Of a stretch of 64,000 nucleotides of DNA, positions 47,114-61,852 are shown piece after piece. Numbering within the stretch: position 1 is the first letter of the stretch; the number at the start of each line of letters is the position of its first letter. The notes beneath the pieces are model-generated. The model did not search any database. It was not told the origin of the DNA and saw nothing but the letters and a program-made list of their open reading frames with translations. Made by a program: the position numbers and the translations under genes. Source of the DNA: Candidatus Eremiobacteria bacterium (GTDB lineage Bacteria; Vulcanimicrobiota; Vulcanimicrobiia; Vulcanimicrobiales; Vulcanimicrobiaceae); contig CAVTRC010000002.1 in the NCBI GenBank assembly GCA_963737065.1, positions 64,001 through 128,000 of the forward strand. Reading direction: 5' to 3'.

Positions 47114-47488
47114 TTACTTTCGTTGATGGAGTCCGAAGTAATTTCCGTCAGGGTCTTGGCACCACTCGGAAAAACACGGGTCGCCCGTCCCGAACCGCTT
47201 GACGTAGGTTCCACCAAGTTCCACGACGCGTTTGCGCAGTGTTTCCGCATCCTCCACGCCGAACACGACCCCGCCCGTAGGAGTGAATTCTGTTGCTTCC
47301 GGGTCGCGTCCAATTGCAAGCGTATTCCCGTCGGGCAAATCGTACTCCACGTAAAAATCCTGGTACTCCACCGACGCTTTGAGGTTGAGAAGCGCCTCGT
47401 AGAACGTGCGCAATTTGTGCATATCGCGCGTTTGAACGATGACGAAATCGAAACCGCGCGTCAACGGTTCAGTGCTGGTTGTACTCAT
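47114..47488 (-). CDS. VOC/glyoxalase family protein
   Basis: FYEALL, V.F.VED, DPDGNYFGLHQ. Confidence 0.88.
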   Translation of the reverse strand: MSTTSTEPLTRGFDFVIVQTRDMHKLRTFYEALLNLKASVEYQDFYVEYDLPDGNTLAIGRDPEATEFTPTGGVVFGVEDAETLRKRVVELGGTYVKRFGTGDPCFSEWCQDPDGNYFGLHQRK

Positions 47489-47524
47489 ACCGTTATACTA
47501 ACCGACCAATCCTGACATTTACCG

Positions 47525-47869
47525 TCAGGATTGTCCCTTGCCTCCCATTCGCTCGACGATGACGTCGTAGACCGCCCGTTTTTCATCGAGCGGATCGACG
47601 ACCATTACCTGCGCACGATCGCCGTTCTTCGGATCGAGGCAGACGGTCACTTTGCCTTTCGCGCACACGTCCATGCAACTCGTCGAAATCACGCGAACCG
47701 GTCCCCATTCGCCATGCTCTTTTAGCGCTGCTTTGAGCCAGTTGCGTAGATTAAAATCGCCGATGCGTTCGGCGATGTCCGGATCTTCTTCAGGGATACG
47801 TTCTTTGAAACACCGCTCGCACACGAGCACGAGGCCGCTGCTGAGCCATTTCGGTTTGACGGGCTGCAT
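47525..47869 (-). CDS. Thioredoxin-like (2Fe-2S) ferredoxin domain protein
   Basis: VLVCERC...TSCMDVC Cys pattern. Confidence 0.6.
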   Translation of the reverse strand: MQPVKPKWLSSGLVLVCERCFKERIPEEDPDIAERIGDFNLRNWLKAALKEHGEWGPVRVISTSCMDVCAKGKVTVCLDPKNGDRAQVMVVDPLDEKRAVYDVIVERMGGKGQS

Positions 47870-47946
47870 GGGGCGCTCACACTTGCGGACTCGTTTCGCA
47901 TTCCCCTTTATCACCGCGCACGAACGGCGCATCGTAATGAAAGCGG

Positions 47947-48029
47947 AGCCGACGGCCGGATTCGAACCGGCGTGCTCTTTCGAGGCGCAATTACAAATCG
48001 CGTGCTTTCAACCGCTCAGCCACGTCGGC
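47947..48029 (-). tRNA. tRNA-Thr(UGU) with long variable arm
   Basis: GCCGACG/CGTCGGC acceptor, D-loop GG, anticodon arm CGCGA-TTTGTAA-TTGCG, 14-nt variable region with CTC-GAAA-GAG, GCCGG-TTCGAAT-CCGGC T arm, U73. Confidence 0.85.
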
Positions 48030-48329
48030 GTATGTACCCGTCTTGTGTCGGGACGTTCGGTTCAACGAGGTCGTCGAGGGTCCTTGGAACCGGCGACCGC
48101 GCTACGGCGCGCTGCGGCTTTTCGTCGGACATTCACCTTGTATGGGATTGTGTTTCCCGCCGAGCCGGTTGCCTCGACCTTGCCCTTGATTCAGCGCTCG
48201 GTATGTCGGAGTGAGCGAGTGGCGCAATCGCCATCGACGTGTTCCACTTCGAGGGGAATTCGCGCCGTCTTCGGGTGACGTTCACACCACCCGCAGCGAC
48301 GCAACGATGGGTTCTGCTACGGCTCACAT

Positions 48330-49109
48330 CTAAACCGAAGCCAAAAAACGATGCATCACATCTGCGAACGCGTCGAAATTGGTGCGGTGCAAGTTGTGCC
48401 CTTCGCCTTCGAAGGCTTTTATGTGGACGCTCGGGGAGTGATGTTGTTCAACGTATTCGATGACCGGCTCAGGGACGATCGAGCCTTCTCGTCCCGCCAT
48501 CGCGAGAAGAAGCGGCTTGCTATAGTGTGCGATATCGCCCCGCAGATCCCAAGCCGAAGCATCATTCTCATCGCGTAAGCGTTCGATCGGCCCCGTTGTC
48601 ATCGTGTGCACGGCATGGACCTTTCCCTCAACGTCGTCGGGATGCCAATCGGCGTACTCTGCGCGCGTCGCGCTATCGCGCGCGTCGCCCGTGTCCGCGA
48701 AGCTTTCGGCGAGTTCCGAGACGTACTCGTCGTACCACGCGCGATCGACTTGAACGATCATCGGATCGACCGCAACGACGCCGCGCACATCGAGCACCTC
48801 GCCGGCGCGGATAACGACCGCGCCGCCCCACGAATGACCCACGAGAACATCTACGCCGCCGACCGCAGATGCGACATTCAAGCAGTCTTGCACGCCACGC
48901 TGCAGCGTCATCGGGCCGGCAATATCCGCGCTGTCGCCGTGACCGCGCTGATCGTAGGCAACAACTCGATAGCGATCGCTGAAGCGTTGCGCGAGACGAA
49001 GCCAGGAGAGGCGGGAGCTCGTCATGCCGTGCACGCACAACATGACGGGTCCCGACGATCCCCATCGTTCGACGGTTGTAGTCGCGCAGTCGTCGAGCGT
49101 GACGATCAT
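48330..49109 (-). CDS. Alpha/beta hydrolase
   Basis: HG oxyanion motif, DQRGHGDS, GHSWGG nucleophile elbow, C-terminal GH. Confidence 0.9.
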   Translation of the reverse strand: MIVTLDDCATTTVERWGSSGPVMLCVHGMTSSRLSWLRLAQRFSDRYRVVAYDQRGHGDSADIAGPMTLQRGVQDCLNVASAVGGVDVLVGHSWGGAVVIRAGEVLDVRGVVAVDPMIVQVDRAWYDEYVSELAESFADTGDARDSATRAEYADWHPDDVEGKVHAVHTMTTGPIERLRDENDASAWDLRGDIAHYSKPLLLAMAGREGSIVPEPVIEYVEQHHSPSVHIKAFEGEGHNLHRTNFDAFADVMHRFLASV

Positions 49110-61059: not shown

Positions 61060-61144
61060 GGGTAGGTGGTCGAGTGGTTAAAGGCACCGGACTGTAAATT
61101 CGGCGCGCGAAAGCGCTACGCTGGTTCGAATCCAGCCCTGCCCA
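61060..61144 (+). tRNA. tRNA-Tyr(GUA)
   Basis: GGGTAGG/CCTGCCC acceptor, CCGGA-CTGTAAA-TTCGG anticodon arm, long variable arm, TTCGAAT loop, A73. Confidence 0.96.
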
Positions 61145-61157
61145 GAGTTCCCCGCAT

Positions 61158-61231
61158 GCGGGCGTTGCATAGTGGTAGTGCCTCTGCCTTCCAAGCAGAT
61201 AGCGCGAGTTCGATTCTCGCCGCCCGCTCCA
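61158..61231 (+). tRNA. tRNA-Gly(UCC)
   Basis: GCGGGCG/CGCCCGC acceptor, TCTGC-CTTCCAA-GCAGA anticodon arm, U73, encoded CCA. Confidence 0.96.
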
Positions 61232-61264
61232 TCGCGATTTCGAAGTTCAACGCGGAGGCCTGCC

Positions 61265-61498
61265 ATGTGGCAGCCCATCATTCGATCGTATCTCTATGTA
61301 CGGTCGTATTTCATTAGTGCGAAACACGAAGCGCGTCGTCAATTTTCCAAAATTAAAGTGGCCGCAGCGCTCGTTGAAGCAGGTATCGTGTATTTTTTCT
61401 GTTTCGAGAGAACCACAGGTACGATCGTTCTCGCTGAAGATCCGTCGCGAACATTTCATCGCGTCAAAGTAAAGAAGGGCCGATTCGATCCGGCGTAA
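61265..61498 (+). CDS. Putative 77-aa basic protein inside the tRNA cluster
   Basis: GGAGG RBS before ATG 61265; AT-richer than flanks. Confidence 0.45.
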   Translation: MWQPIIRSYLYVRSYFISAKHEARRQFSKIKVAAALVEAGIVYFFCFERTTGTIVLAEDPSRTFHRVKVKKGRFDPA

Positions 61499-61600
61499 TT
61501 ATTTTTAGGCGCTACAGTGCGCATGAGACCGCCGAAGATTTAGCAATGCACCGCTGTGCGGGACGGATGGACCACTTTGGCGTGTATTGTCCGCACAATC

Positions 61601-61745
61601 GCGACTGCTACCTGGTCGCTGTGTAAAAGTCGGGTCAGTGCGATCTCCGTATTGCATCGTGCCAACACGCTCAAGGTACGAAGATCAGAGGGCTGAGCAG
61701 TACTTGACCCGGGAACCTCGGAACGGAAGACAGTAGGTTCGGAGA
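61601..61745 (+). ncRNA. Candidate structured RNA with possible pseudoknot upstream of tRNA-Thr
   Basis: Nested stems 61631-61641/61700-61711 and 61642-61653/61675-61686, GCTCA/TGAGC cross-pairing, GAACCT/AGGTTC hairpin; folded by hand. Confidence 0.4.
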
Positions 61746-61775
61746 CCACCAGCGGAGTATCGTTGGGTGTCCTTT

Positions 61776-61847
61776 GCCGTTGTAGCTCAGTGGTAGAGCA
61801 TTTCCTTGGTAAGGAAAAGGCCACGGGTTCAATCCCCGTCAACGGCT
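61776..61847 (+). tRNA. tRNA-Thr(GGU)
   Basis: GCCGTTG/CAACGGC acceptor, TTTCC-TTGGTAA-GGAAA anticodon arm, short variable loop, U73. Confidence 0.96.
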
Positions 61848-61852
61848 CATGT

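Follow-up and report, generated by a model that had tools for sequence, protein, structure and literature searches.

The gene at positions 47947–48029 on the minus strand of the window, the 64,000-nt stretch of DNA analyzed here, encodes a class II tRNA-Thr(UGU). Very probably, it is an ordinary thrU-type tRNA-Thr(UGU) whose D arm and variable region were remodelled to the class II form and which, charged by ThrRS, acts as the sole decoder of ACA. By a textbook rule, tRNAs fall into classes I and II, and bacterial class II is limited to Ser, Leu, and Tyr, with Sec in addition. The available sections of two reviews name only Ser, Leu, and Tyr (and Sec) as class II (PMC7609411, PMC9976931).

Gene and overall fold

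Both ARAGORN and Rfam identify 47947–48029 as a real tRNA of 83 nt with anticodon UGU, and the 83-nt sequence given in a preliminary description of this DNA is the exact reverse complement of the window at these positions. ARAGORN calls a tRNA-Thr with anticodon tgt at 47945–48029 on the minus strand. The match to Rfam RF00005 covers model positions 1–71 and scores 57.6 bits, where the gathering score is 29 (E 8e-10), and its alignment places the surplus bases as an insertion in the variable region. ARAGORN draws the acceptor stem with 7 bp, the D stem with 3 bp and with G13 and A22 left unpaired, the anticodon stem with 5 bp that include G30-U40, and the T stem with 5 bp; the discriminator is U73, and the anticodon loop is UUUGUAA. 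The discriminator is followed by CC at 47946–47945 and then by G, leaving CCA incompletely encoded.

The variable region, CCUCGAAAGAGCAC, is 14 nt long and is drawn as 3 bp closed by GAAA. It is therefore of the class II kind, being longer than 10 nt and forming a stem-loop, and so is the 3-bp D stem with its unpaired 13:22, which recurs when this genome's tRNA-Leu, tRNA-Ser, and tRNA-Tyr are drawn. The final C of the variable arm lies in register with G15 (Levitt pair). The earlier statement that all stems pair holds, with an intact fold in the drawing and stems that covary in 51 sequences. The features discussed here are as follows.

47947..48029, minus strand: class II tRNA-Thr(UGU) gene, 83 nt to the discriminator U73 (47947); from ARAGORN, Rfam, and orthologs
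48023..48029, minus strand: 5′ strand of the acceptor stem, GCCGACG (G1, C2, C3); partner CGUCGGC at 47948–47954
48004..48020, minus strand: D arm of class II type, stem GCU/AGC of 3 bp, G13 and A22 unpaired, 11-nt loop region GAGCGGUUGAA
47986..48002, minus strand: anticodon arm CGCGA-UUUGUAA-UUGCG with A37 and A38 (ARAGORN)
47993–47995, minus strand: anticodon UGU, which reads ACA on the plus strand
47972..47985, minus strand: variable arm of 14 nt, consisting of C, stem CUC/GAG, tetraloop GAAA, and CAC (ARAGORN drawing)
47955..47971, minus strand: T arm GCCGG-UUCGAAU-CCGGC, identical to the T arm of the class I Thr(UGU) of genome G010
47525..47932, minus strand: ORF of 135 aa that belongs to no Pfam family and begins 15 nt downstream of the tRNA; synteny marker
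48330..49109, minus strand: alpha/beta-hydrolase gene upstream of the tRNA; second synteny marker
61060..61848, plus strand: cluster of tRNA-Tyr(GUA), tRNA-Gly(UCC), and tRNA-Thr(GGU) (ARAGORN, Rfam)

Threonine identity and the synthetase

The top half of the tRNA (acceptor stem and T arm) is 97% identical to that of the tRNA-Thr(CGU) of the same genome: the acceptor stems are identical and the T arms nearly so, with loops UUCGAAU and UUCGAGU, respectively. G010 has a class I Thr(UGU) whose acceptor stem, like its T arm, is likewise the same. The preliminary description had likened the acceptor stem to that of tRNA-Thr(GGU) at 61776; it is indeed of threonine type, but its best match is Thr(CGU), on the other contig. 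The tRNA carries G1-C72, C2-G71, G35, U36, and U73. The two base pairs, which we take to be the acceptor identity pairs of E. coli tRNA-Thr, are the acceptor elements expected for ThrRS, and G35 and U36 are the anticodon elements.

In the available text of PMC9976931, threonine identity resides in acceptor-stem pairs and anticodon nucleotides, with N73 as a minor element; the same text gives G73 as the strong SerRS determinant, C2-G71 as a SerRS antideterminant, and A73 as crucial for LeuRS. The rule for bacterial tRNA-Tyr is A73 together with anticodon GUA (G34, U35), according to the accessible parts of PMC13433404 and PMC9976931. The class II Thr(UGU) differs from tRNA-Tyr by U73 and its UGU anticodon, from tRNA-Leu by U73, and from tRNA-Ser by U73, by C2-G71, and by its 3-bp arm, compared with 6–7 bp in the same genome's Ser tRNAs. 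Among the matches listed, A73 occurs in 9 of 152 other long-arm UGU tRNAs.

The genome has a single ThrRS, with the usual editing, core, and anticodon-binding domains, which is 83% identical to and collinear with the ThrRS of G006, a carrier of the class I form. A dedicated second ThrRS was not found, one match lying over the cut-off and three others under it. We infer that the class II Thr(UGU) is expressed and that this single ThrRS charges it with threonine.

Decoding of ACA

Under standard wobble, G34 and C34 cannot read ACA. The 3.08-Mb assembly, in 2 contigs, contains 51 tRNAs according to ARAGORN, of which the gene at 47947–48029 is the single tRNA-Thr(UGU); the check for another copy that accompanied the preliminary description thus came back empty. 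The genome's Thr(CGU) and Thr(GGU) are both class I in the ARAGORN output. The class II Thr(UGU) is then, in all likelihood, the cell's one decoder of this threonine codon. The assembly is 95% complete, and tRNA-Leu(UAA) and tmRNA were not found in it by ARAGORN either, so an unassembled piece could in principle carry a class I Thr(UGU). An entry labelled 'tRNA-???' at C1:443525 was rejected as a hidden tRNA; its stems are poor and it is a false positive.

The reading of ACA was followed in 408 ORF pairs between this genome and two distant relatives with class I tRNAs, a comparison that reads evolutionary conservation and is blind to low-level mischarging. ACA aligns with Thr at 38.3% (n = 415), and ACC, ACG, and ACU do so at 37.2% (n = 1770), 42.7% (n = 4135), and 36.4% (n = 214), respectively. 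Opposite ACA, Ala and Ser come next, just as they do with the remaining Thr codons, Tyr and Leu fall outside the top seven, and there is no excess of Tyr, Leu, or Ser. Judged by this conservation, ACA behaves as a threonine codon in the proteins of the organism. The earlier suggestion that this is the working copy agrees with its being the sole Thr(UGU) of the assembly, at a locus that in a congener holds the class I Thr(UGU), and with ACA reading as Thr.

Native locus and exchange of long and short forms

The two genes that flank the tRNA serve as synteny markers. Homologues of the 135-aa ORF adjoin the tRNA in L005, L007, L008, and L294, which represent several genera, with 66–75% amino acid identity. 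The alpha/beta hydrolase has 62% amino acid identity and is collinear with the class I locus of G006, a genome of the same genus in which a class I Thr(UGU) stands in the same orientation, flanked by the same genes. Since the locus of this congener holds an ordinary short Thr(UGU), the long and short forms are, as synteny indicates, interchangeable alleles of one gene. They almost never share one genome, an exclusivity that in other genomes is based on sequence patterns, by which an unusual T loop or acceptor end would be missed, and seven or more genera are polymorphic in this respect.

The preliminary description had also pointed to a Tyr-Gly-Thr(GGU) cluster devoid of its Thr(UGU). The cluster is composed of tRNA-Tyr at 61060, tRNA-Gly at 61158, and tRNA-Thr(GGU) at 61776, and neither ARAGORN nor Rfam finds a Thr(UGU) upstream of Tyr. 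Directly upstream of the same cluster, G010 has a class I Thr(UGU), and G216 has a class II Thr(UGU) in this canonical slot; in G216, a class I Thr(UGU) co-occurs within a 16-tRNA array. The neighbourhood of the gene in the window is composed of the alpha/beta hydrolase, an FAD oxidoreductase, an ArsR regulator, an ECF sigma factor, and two ORFs with no Pfam family. None of these neighbours has a tie to tRNA biology. A sigma-70 consensus promoter was not found in 47400–48600, this consensus being uninformative for the phylum.

Covariation and conservation of the class II architecture

We aligned 51 distinct long-arm sequences of one shared geometry, found by sequence pattern. In this alignment, 99.5% of the stem cells are paired versus 70.1% in shuffles (0/500), with double changes in 19 of the 23 pairs. 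The variable arm changes on both sides in 3/3 pairs and is paired in 99.3% of cells; all three pairs of the D stem covary, with 100% pairing over the 51 sequences, and covariation extends to 5/5 pairs of the anticodon stem. Because compensatory changes keep it paired, the variable arm is under selection once present. U8, A14, G15, the GG of the D loop, and the last C of the variable arm are invariant. So are the T-loop columns UUCGAAU and the pairs G1-C72, C2-G71, and C3-G70, in both cases partly fixed by the search pattern. At 13:22, inspection by eye gives the combinations G:A, A:A, A:C, U:U, and C:C. In blastn searches, the gene is conserved at 75–98% identity in 8 of 40 related genomes. 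Given this conservation and the covariation of its stems, the class II Thr(UGU) gene is, on comparative grounds, far beyond chance occurrence.

The body of the tRNA (positions 8–48) is 76% identical to the same genome's tRNA-Tyr, 71–75% to three of the four tRNA-Ser, and 69% to Ser(UGA), and its D loop is that of tRNA-Ser(GGA). The scaffold had been called Tyr-like. This applies to the short, GAAA-capped arm, but the body is only marginally Tyr-specific. Gene conversion from the neighbouring tRNA-Tyr was considered as an origin and gains no support from the body identity, which is no better to Tyr than to three of the four tRNA-Ser.

Distribution in bacteria and viruses

The survey of the phylum proposed earlier was carried out: a Thr(UGU)-like match is present in 359 of 401 genomes, nearly all of which have exactly one. 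Matches to the long-gap pattern, a few of them due to chance, occur in 143 of the 296 sampled genomes of the family (f1). The sister family (f2) has 1/5, f3 has 1/30, which is not tRNA-like, and the other families have 0/69; a tRNA-like long form was not found in the 99 genomes of the phylum beyond the family and its sister family. Within the family, the variable region of Thr(UGU) is very plastic, with arms of 2–5 bp, unstructured loops of 11–12 nt, and regions of intermediate length. In the Spirosoma and Kiritimatiellia genomes searched, the long form is the only tRNA-like Thr(UGU) among the matches listed. The architecture spans three bacterial phyla, and its carriers include cultured Spirosoma.

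The pattern scans reach over 24 of 64 parts for genomes and 40 of 64 for viral contigs. Viral contigs have the long form in 113 of 120 cases among the matches listed. Across viral stretches, again among the matches listed, the UGU pattern occurs an estimated ~190 times, versus 8 for long-arm CGU and 0 for long-arm GGU; the long arm thus appears nearly restricted to the UGU isoacceptor. Among cultured phages, the blastn queries used here against 50,697 phage records returned no long-arm tRNA-Thr, only partial matches to tRNA-Tyr or tRNA-Ser, and a candidate from Synechococcus phage S-WAM2 proved to be a genuine tRNA-Ser(UGA). Among the viral matches listed, the nearest are only 80–88% identical to bacterial long-arm Thr(UGU), and 83-nt tRNAs carry too little signal to speak for or against a recent transfer from phage to host.

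In the open full-text literature that we searched, we met with no account of a class II tRNA-Thr from a bacterium or phage. The earlier caveat that such tRNAs may already be catalogued for the lineage applies to the gene, which is present in many public genomes including those of cultured Spirosoma, but no paper describing it was found.

Comparison with known tRNAs

Class I tRNA-Thr(UGU) in its canonical form, encoded by thrU in the thrU-tyrU-glyT-thrT cluster, shares with the window gene the UGU anticodon, A37 and A38, the pairs G1-C72, C2-G71, and C3-G70, the genomic slot (at the G006 locus and in the G216 cluster), and the role of sole ACA decoder. It differs by a 4-bp D stem, a smaller D loop, a 5-nt variable region, and a length of 72–74 nt to N73, as against 83. 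Class II tRNAs have in common with the window gene the long variable arm, the 3-bp D stem, a non-Watson-Crick 13:22, U8, A14, the D-loop GG, and G15 with the last C of the variable arm; the tRNA-Tyr of the same genome adds a short arm, a GAAA cap, and three unpaired 3′ bases. They have A73 or G73 rather than U73 and lack the Thr anticodon and Thr acceptor stem present here.

Eukaryotic 'noncanonical V-arm tRNAs' that combine a variable arm with a class I-family anticodon were reportedly described by Hamashima et al. in 2016. The allo-tRNAs of Mukai et al. (2017) are said to have an 8/4 or 9/3 acceptor/T geometry. The latter are likewise non-standard, come from bacteria or phages, and combine a long variable arm with an unexpected anticodon, but the class II Thr(UGU) has acceptor and T stems of the standard 7 and 5 bp, respectively, and its cognate identity set. 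As far as the available text of PMC4300185 goes, the nematode nev-tRNA-Gly(CCC) as well as nev-tRNA-Ile(UAU) resemble our tRNA in having a variable arm and a class I-family anticodon, and differ in their tRNA-Leu-like arms, charging with Leu in vitro, weak expression, and presence beside normal cognates. Neither a coexisting cognate nor donor identity elements, the marks of the nev type, are found for the class II Thr(UGU), which keeps the identity marks of its own family as the sole Thr(UGU), with ACA aligned as Thr.

A further comparison concerns phage tRNA-Thr(UGU) variants that beat the nucleases PARIS AriB (T5) or P2 OLD (phage 21 and library tRNAs). The isoacceptor and phage carriage are shared, but in the accessible parts of PMC12409363 and PMC12445682 these variants have cleavage-site substitutions or a shorter anticodon stem. 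The window gene further differs from them in being chromosomal and at its native locus rather than phage-borne. The word 'variable' is absent from the main text of both papers.

Proposed explanation and alternatives

In the explanation we favor, with high confidence, the D arm and variable region of a thrU-type tRNA-Thr(UGU) were rebuilt into a 3-bp D stem and a 14-nt hairpin arm. The parts that serve threonine identity and decoding are retained: G1-C72 and C2-G71 with the rest of the acceptor stem, the T arm, the UGU anticodon, A37, and U73. ThrRS would charge this tRNA with threonine, and EF-Tu and the ribosome would use it like any class II tRNA. Charging by SerRS, LeuRS, or TyrRS instead, with an ambiguous reading of ACA and perhaps ACG of the kind put forward for the V-arm tRNAs of nematodes, is very improbable. 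The long arm and 3-bp D stem are an architecture used by SerRS and partly by LeuRS and TyrRS, the body resembles tRNA-Tyr and three of the tRNA-Ser, and nev-tRNAs with Gly or Ile anticodons take Leu in vitro in the available text of PMC4300185. Against these resemblances stand U73 in place of G73 or A73, the SerRS antideterminant C2-G71, an anticodon other than GUA, the 3-bp arm, and the alignment of ACA with Thr as for the other Thr codons. The sole ACA decoder moreover swaps with a normal tRNA-Thr at one locus, and a mistranslator could do this only at the price of rewriting ~6% of the aligned Thr codons. The ambiguous ACA/ACG decoding put forward in the preliminary description is on these grounds unsupported. 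Slighter still is the chance that the gene is an unexpressed relic or an assembly artefact, with a normal tRNA-Thr(UGU) in the unassembled 5%. The gaps in the tRNA and tmRNA set and the lack of a promoter consensus would fit this idea, but the stems are intact and covary over 51 distinct sequences, orthologs are present in 8 related genomes by blastn, with long-gap matches in 143/296 family genomes, and genomes hold, with few exceptions, either the long or the short form. That a congener has its class I gene at the same locus further implies that the locus belongs to a working copy.

What the class II body means is a separate matter, on which two views compete within the favored explanation. 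The view that it is tolerated and neutral, with no adaptive meaning and otherwise the same function, comes close to an even chance; it rivals only the arms-race part considered below. The body would have arisen by insertion or by partial gene conversion from a class II tRNA, would spread by drift and recombination, and would be tolerated by a ThrRS that reads nothing beyond acceptor stem and anticodon. The location of the ThrRS identity elements outside the remodelled region, a ThrRS unchanged between carriers of the long and short alleles, the plasticity of the variable region within the family, and the ancestral cluster, in which thrU adjoins tRNA-Tyr in relatives, all point this way. Neutrality accords less well with compensatory changes that keep the arm paired, with the same architecture in three bacterial phyla and in most of the listed viral matches, with its near-restriction to UGU, with the polymorphism of at least seven genera, and with an identity to the adjacent Tyr gene no higher than to Ser. 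The available text of PMC12409363 and PMC12445682 presents tRNA-Thr(UGU) as a prime target of the PARIS and P2-OLD nucleases and ranks UGU well above CGU as a target, with GGU spared. The viral order UGU > CGU > GGU mirrors this preference, which also tells against neutrality. A more tentative possibility, which we regard as rather unlikely, is that by its class II body the tRNA escapes defence nucleases that cut tRNA-Thr(UGU). As one tRNA reads ACA, Toprim nucleases (PARIS AriB, P2 OLD, and relatives) could kill by cutting it, and the new D and variable arms would alter the shape on which the nuclease docks, leaving the contacts with ThrRS and the ribosome intact. Phages would bring the long form in tRNA arrays and so survive host defences. 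In this family of Eremiobacterota, roughly half of the genomes sampled, and also Spirosoma and Kiritimatiellia, would have fixed it at the native thrU locus, the two alleles persisting as a polymorphism maintained by conflict. Many long-arm copies retain both the published AriB site motif UAAUCA and, within the anticodon stem, a paired CNG; resistance, if any, would then have to reside in the distal architecture.

Significance

The rule that limits class II to a few amino acids underlies ideas on synthetase recognition and tRNA evolution. Here, an essential class I tRNA appears to have switched class in place, repeatedly or persistently, with a synthetase that shows no visible change. This makes it testable to what extent a long arm is tolerated by ThrRS, itself a class II synthetase, and how frozen tRNA class is, and also whether tRNA architecture, beyond the sequence of the anticodon loop, is a battlefield between phages and tRNA-cutting defences. 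Recent work that identified tRNA-Thr(UGU) as a prime target of PARIS and P2 OLD makes this last question timely, and the cultured Spirosoma carriers make experiments feasible. For annotation, isotype models may flag or misname long-arm tRNA-Thr genes; for tRNA engineering, a natural tRNA-Thr with a long variable arm is at hand. If the escape reading were true, the long-arm Thr(UGU) would be a new bacterial class II tRNA family born of an arms race, beside Ser, Leu, Tyr, and Sec.

A class II tRNA-Thr(UGU) and the tRNA set of its genome

The preliminary description reported a threonine tRNA with a UGU anticodon and a long variable arm, and its observation was borne out in every detail by sequence match, ARAGORN, Rfam and the drawn structure: the 83-nt sequence is the exact reverse complement of window positions 47947-48029, and the Tyr-Gly-Thr(GGU) cluster of the window has, as claimed, no Thr(UGU) in front (ARAGORN, Rfam). 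The gene matches the Rfam tRNA model with 57.6 bits (E 8e-10; gathering score 29), its extra bases falling into an insertion at the variable region; the same placement is seen for the tRNA-Tyr at 61060. Beginning 15 nt downstream, an ORF of 135 residues without a Pfam family follows the tRNA; it also adjoins the Thr(UGU) gene in four other genomes, G006, G012, G013 and G021 (66-75% identity); as this position is kept, tRNA and ORF may be co-transcribed.

Features of the window, with the elements of the tRNA taken from the ARAGORN drawing
47945-48029, minus strand: tRNA-Thr(tgt) (ARAGORN)
Acceptor stem: GCCGACG/CGUCGGC, 7 bp, plus U73
D stem: 3 bp; G13 and A22 unpaired
Anticodon arm: stem including G30-U40; loop UUUGUAA
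Variable region: 14 nt; 3-bp stem with GAAA cap
T stem: 5 bp
47525-47932, minus strand: 135-residue ORF
61060-61848: Tyr(GUA), Gly(UCC) and Thr(GGU) tRNAs (ARAGORN, Rfam)

The whole assembly, G000, comprises 3,078,187 bases in two contigs (G+C 60.5%, completeness rating 95.3%) and contains 51 tRNA genes according to ARAGORN. Its threonine tRNAs are CGU (class I, with a 4-bp D stem), GGU (class I) and the UGU of the window, no other tRNA-Thr(UGU) being found by ARAGORN in this 95.3%-complete assembly. Under standard wobble rules ACA is not read by G34 or C34, so the window gene is the only candidate decoder of ACA in G000. Neither tRNA-Leu(UAA) nor tmRNA was detected by ARAGORN in the whole assembly, relaxed settings included, which suggests that some RNA genes may sit in unassembled DNA: either a piece with RNA genes is unassembled, or the tRNA-Leu(UAA) and tmRNA genes are unusual. 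TTA is in use despite the undetected tRNA-Leu(UAA), with 56.6% of 318 aligned positions opposite Leu.

Amino acid identity and the meaning of ACA

What marks a tRNA for threonine is a set of pairs in the acceptor stem together with nucleotides of the anticodon, N73 counting for little; LeuRS depends crucially on A73 and SerRS on G73, G73 blocks LeuRS and TyrRS, C2-G71 is an antideterminant against SerRS (PMC9976931), and TyrRS requires A73 and U35 (PMC13433404, PMC9976931). With G1-C72, C2-G71, G35, U36 and U73, the window tRNA carries all the marks for ThrRS and none for SerRS, LeuRS or TyrRS.

The preliminary description had also envisaged charging with another amino acid and ambiguous decoding of ACA/ACG. 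The ORFs of G000 were compared with 760 kb of G037 and G075, distant relatives with class I Thr(UGU), which gave 408 ORF pairs at a median identity of 46.7%. Opposite the 415 ACA codons of G000 stand Thr (38.3%), Ala (10.8%) and Ser (8.9%), and the Thr value falls to 36.2% once positions with ACA in the relative are dropped; it is 37.2% for ACC, 42.7% for ACG and 36.4% for ACU, ACA making up about 6% of the aligned Thr codons. No excess of Tyr, Leu or Ser at ACA is seen in these 408 pairs. As U73 and C2-G71 lack the marks for SerRS, LeuRS and TyrRS and ACA aligns like the other Thr codons, a mischarged tRNA with ambiguous ACA is very improbable. A single ThrRS of G000 scores above the family cut-off. 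It contains the editing, catalytic and anticodon-binding domains and can be aligned over its full length with the ThrRS of carriers of either tRNA form (83% to the class I carrier G006, 84-90% to four class II congeners), and no synthetase adaptation is visible in these alignments.

Long and short forms as alleles

Full or near-full matches were found by blastn in 8 of 40 related genomes. Five of these share the window's genus (identity 98, 98, 94, 89 and 75%), and three belong to the family but not the genus (90, 87 and 82%); 5 genomes of the sister family gave none, nor did 11 from a further family of the class. All eight are Thr(tgt) of 83-86 nt, any encoded CCA bases included (ARAGORN). 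G010 belongs to a different genus of the family. Its Thr(UGU), an ordinary one of 76 nt, shares the exact sequence of acceptor stem and T arm with the window gene and lies directly upstream of Tyr-Gly-Thr(GGU); in G216 this canonical slot is taken by a long-arm Thr(UGU), and in G012, G021 and G129 the long form and tRNA-Tyr are neighbours on opposite strands. The most telling case is the congener G006: its Thr(UGU) is of class I, 74 nt long, and has the same orientation and flanking genes as the long form of the window (amino acid identity 75% for the small downstream ORF, 82% for the next gene and 62% for the upstream hydrolase). The shared slots and this synteny thus make the long and short forms alleles of one gene. 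A further class I Thr(UGU) beside tRNA-Tyr, L011 in the unpublished genome G014, is not needed for any of these claims. The view of the V-arm tRNA-Thr as the working copy gains support from its being the sole Thr(UGU) of G000, from allelism and from ACA aligning as Thr.

We searched 401 genomes of the phylum, G000 included, with two sequence patterns: one runs from the UGU anticodon loop across a gap to the T loop and acceptor end and takes both forms, and the other admits long gaps only (20-30). The former matched 359 of the 401 genomes, nearly all once, class I matches being 40 nt long, and the latter 146; unpublished genomes are counted in both (13 and 5, respectively), and, kin being non-independent, the counts describe the sample only. 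About a dozen of the long-gap matches listed do not look like tRNAs and are the sole such match in some 5-7 genomes, so the long form is truly present in about 136-138 of 296 genomes of the window's family: it is widespread there and not a single-genome oddity.

Genomes with long-gap matches, by family
Window's family (f1), without G000: 143/296
Sister family (f2): 1/5 (G029, confirmed 84-nt Thr(tgt))
Another family (f3): 1/30 (G037, not tRNA-like)
Other 18 families: 0/69

Long-gap matches are mixed within genera g1 (4/5), g29 (22/33), g31 (51/80), g34 (4/9), g41 (2/5), g42 (12/18) and g44 (4/11), and uniform in g40 (12/12), g38 (0/9) and g14 (0/5). The only verified co-occurrence of both forms is in G216, where the chromosomal copy is class II and the class I copy lies within a 16-tRNA array (L293, G216:C52). 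This array and L297 (G129:C103) hold 16 and 21 tRNA genes within 3 kb, many of atypical sequence, and look like mobile-element or prophage tRNA islands. Seven family genomes, G058, G078, G249 (g30), G154, G369, G386 and G392, have a Thr(UGU) variable region that is A/C-rich, 11-12 nt long and without obvious stem, or of intermediate length; this region appears unusually plastic in the family.

Occurrence in other bacteria and in phages

One genome per prokaryote species was searched with a stricter pattern that combines a long gap, GGTTCGAATCC and GGC at 70-72. It gave at least 117 loci, drawn from 24 of 64 parts, with an estimated 340 or so matching stretches, and a Thr(UGU) of at least 80 nt at 73 of the 117 among the matches listed.

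Labels of prokaryotic long Thr(UGU) loci among the matches listed
Eremiobacterota / Vulcanimicrobiota / WPS-2: 39
Kiritimatiellia: 12, plus 2 of the same sequence type under other labels
Spirosoma / Spirosomataceae / Cytophagales: 10, cultured strains included
Acidobacteriota: 3, a label given little weight because these tRNAs closely resemble the Eremiobacterota ones
Remainder: 2 unlabelled, 4 oddities, 1 archaeal intron-bearing tRNA

Five genomes (two of Spirosoma, two Kiritimatiellia MAGs and another MAG) have long-arm genes as their only tRNA-like Thr(UGU) matches. The other 44 of the 117 listed loci were rejected: 9 held no tRNA, and the remainder were tRNA-Tyr with U32, intron-bearing tRNAs of archaea or, in a few cases, other tRNAs. 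The tRNA-Tyr(GUA) of Dietzia and Corynebacterium (L052, L062, L066, L077, L083-L088 and others) matched because of U32 (loop UUGUAAA) and an acceptor stem beginning GCCAGAU. L076:150-233, from a Blackburnbacteria MAG (CPR), is a Thr(UGU) with an ordinary class I D arm and a 17-nt variable arm with a 5-bp stem, and would represent a different route to a long arm.

On viral contigs the stricter pattern gave at least 120 loci in 40 of 64 parts, out of an estimated total near 190, with a long Thr(UGU) at 113 of the 120 among the matches listed, often near other tRNAs. Complete control scans in which the anticodon alone was altered gave 20 loci for CGU, 8 of them with a long Thr(CGU), and 45 for GGU, none with a long Thr(GGU); by these counts the long arm is close to specific to the UGU isoacceptor. 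The eight phage Thr(CGU) genes, within L298-L317, are presumably anticodon variants of the UGU form. At three viral loci (L212, L214 and L279) the phage tRNA cluster holds adjacent copies of class I and class II Thr(UGU). Among 50,697 phage records, most from cultured phages, four blastn queries found no long-arm tRNA-Thr. Identity between the bacterial sequences and their nearest viral counterparts is 80-88%, a level that speaks neither for nor against exchange.

Covariation of the long form

We pooled 152 distinct long Thr(UGU) sequences, for which the pattern had fixed 70-72 and the T loop and left N73 free: U73 occurs in 141, A73 in 9 and C73 in 2. The A73 tRNAs are L013:150-234, L040:150-234, L092:118-200 and six viral loci; L013, from a Woeseiaceae MAG, has a D loop of tRNA-Leu type. 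Given A73 and a LeuRS that does not read the anticodon, such tRNAs could be charged with Leu and read ACA as Leu, as candidate natural mistranslators or suppressors. With one archaeal sequence left out, the variable region measures 14-16 nt in 115 of 151 and, folded alone, forms a stem of 3 bp in 83, of 4-5 bp in 27, of 2 bp in 11 and none in 30.

In an alignment of 51 sequences picked for identical geometry only (34 bacterial, 17 viral; 83 nt), 99.5% of the cloverleaf and arm cells are paired, versus 70.1% in shuffles (0/500 reach 99.5%) and 28-46% when the partners are slid. Both sides change in 19 of 23 pairs, including all three of the variable arm, which are 99.3% paired; the first of these is U-A in 21, C-G in 18, G-C in 10 and A-U in 2. 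In 45 of 51 the arm is capped by GAAA, GCAA or GUAA, and U8, A14, G15, the D-loop GG and the last arm base C, partner of G15, are invariant. Pairing and covariation look like the picture of a folded, used class II tRNA whose structure is under selection.

Origin and possible role of the long arm

The window tRNA looks like a chimera. Its top half (acceptor stem and T arm) shares 97% identity with the tRNA-Thr(CGU) of G000, and its body (positions 8-48) is 57% identical to that tRNA, 76% to tRNA-Tyr and 75, 73, 71 and 69% to the four tRNA-Ser genes, the D-loop sequence being that of tRNA-Ser(GGA). The tRNA-Tyr likeness put forward earlier thus holds for the arm, which is short, has a GAAA cap and precedes three unpaired bases, and not as a demonstrated derivation, since the body is about equally near to tRNA-Ser.

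Toprim nucleases that act against phages, among them PARIS AriB and P2 OLD, have tRNA-Thr(UGU) among their favoured targets (PMC12409363, PMC12445682), and phage T5 answers with tRNA-Thr(UGU) variants of its own (PMC12409363). The killing by P2 OLD comes from cleavage in the anticodon arm of this sole ACA decoder; GGU isoacceptors are spared and CGU is affected only mildly, and phage tRNA-Thr(UGU) genes rescue the cell (PMC12445682); the word "variable" is absent from the main text of both papers. The long arm may conceivably be an escape form shaped by conflict with tRNA-cutting nucleases, a tentative reading which fits the viral isoacceptor ranking (UGU far above CGU, GGU none), the abundance of the long form in phage tRNA arrays, the paired class I and II copies of some phages and the coexistence of both alleles at a fixed locus in at least seven genera; the published cleavage-site motifs retained by many long-arm copies count against it. 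A class II body without adaptive meaning has a nearly even chance of being the explanation, as a ThrRS indifferent to the remodelled region would let a neutral variant spread too.

Comparison with known tRNAs and significance

Reviews confine bacterial class II tRNAs to Ser, Leu and Tyr, plus Sec (PMC7609411, PMC9976931). The nearest published analogues, the nematode V-arm tRNAs, are charged with Leu, weakly expressed and redundant with normal cognates (PMC4300185), and the window tRNA appears to differ in charging, expression and redundancy. It has the standard 7/5 geometry. Allo-tRNAs have another geometry. Long-arm genes sit in public genomes, surely auto-annotated as tRNA-Thr, and in the full-text literature, subscription journals, supplements and tRNA database notes aside, we found no description of a class II tRNA-Thr. 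We rate the window gene as a probable tRNA-Thr that changed class. The finding reaches further than the preliminary description saw: a widespread family, which phages share, that stands in for an essential tRNA.
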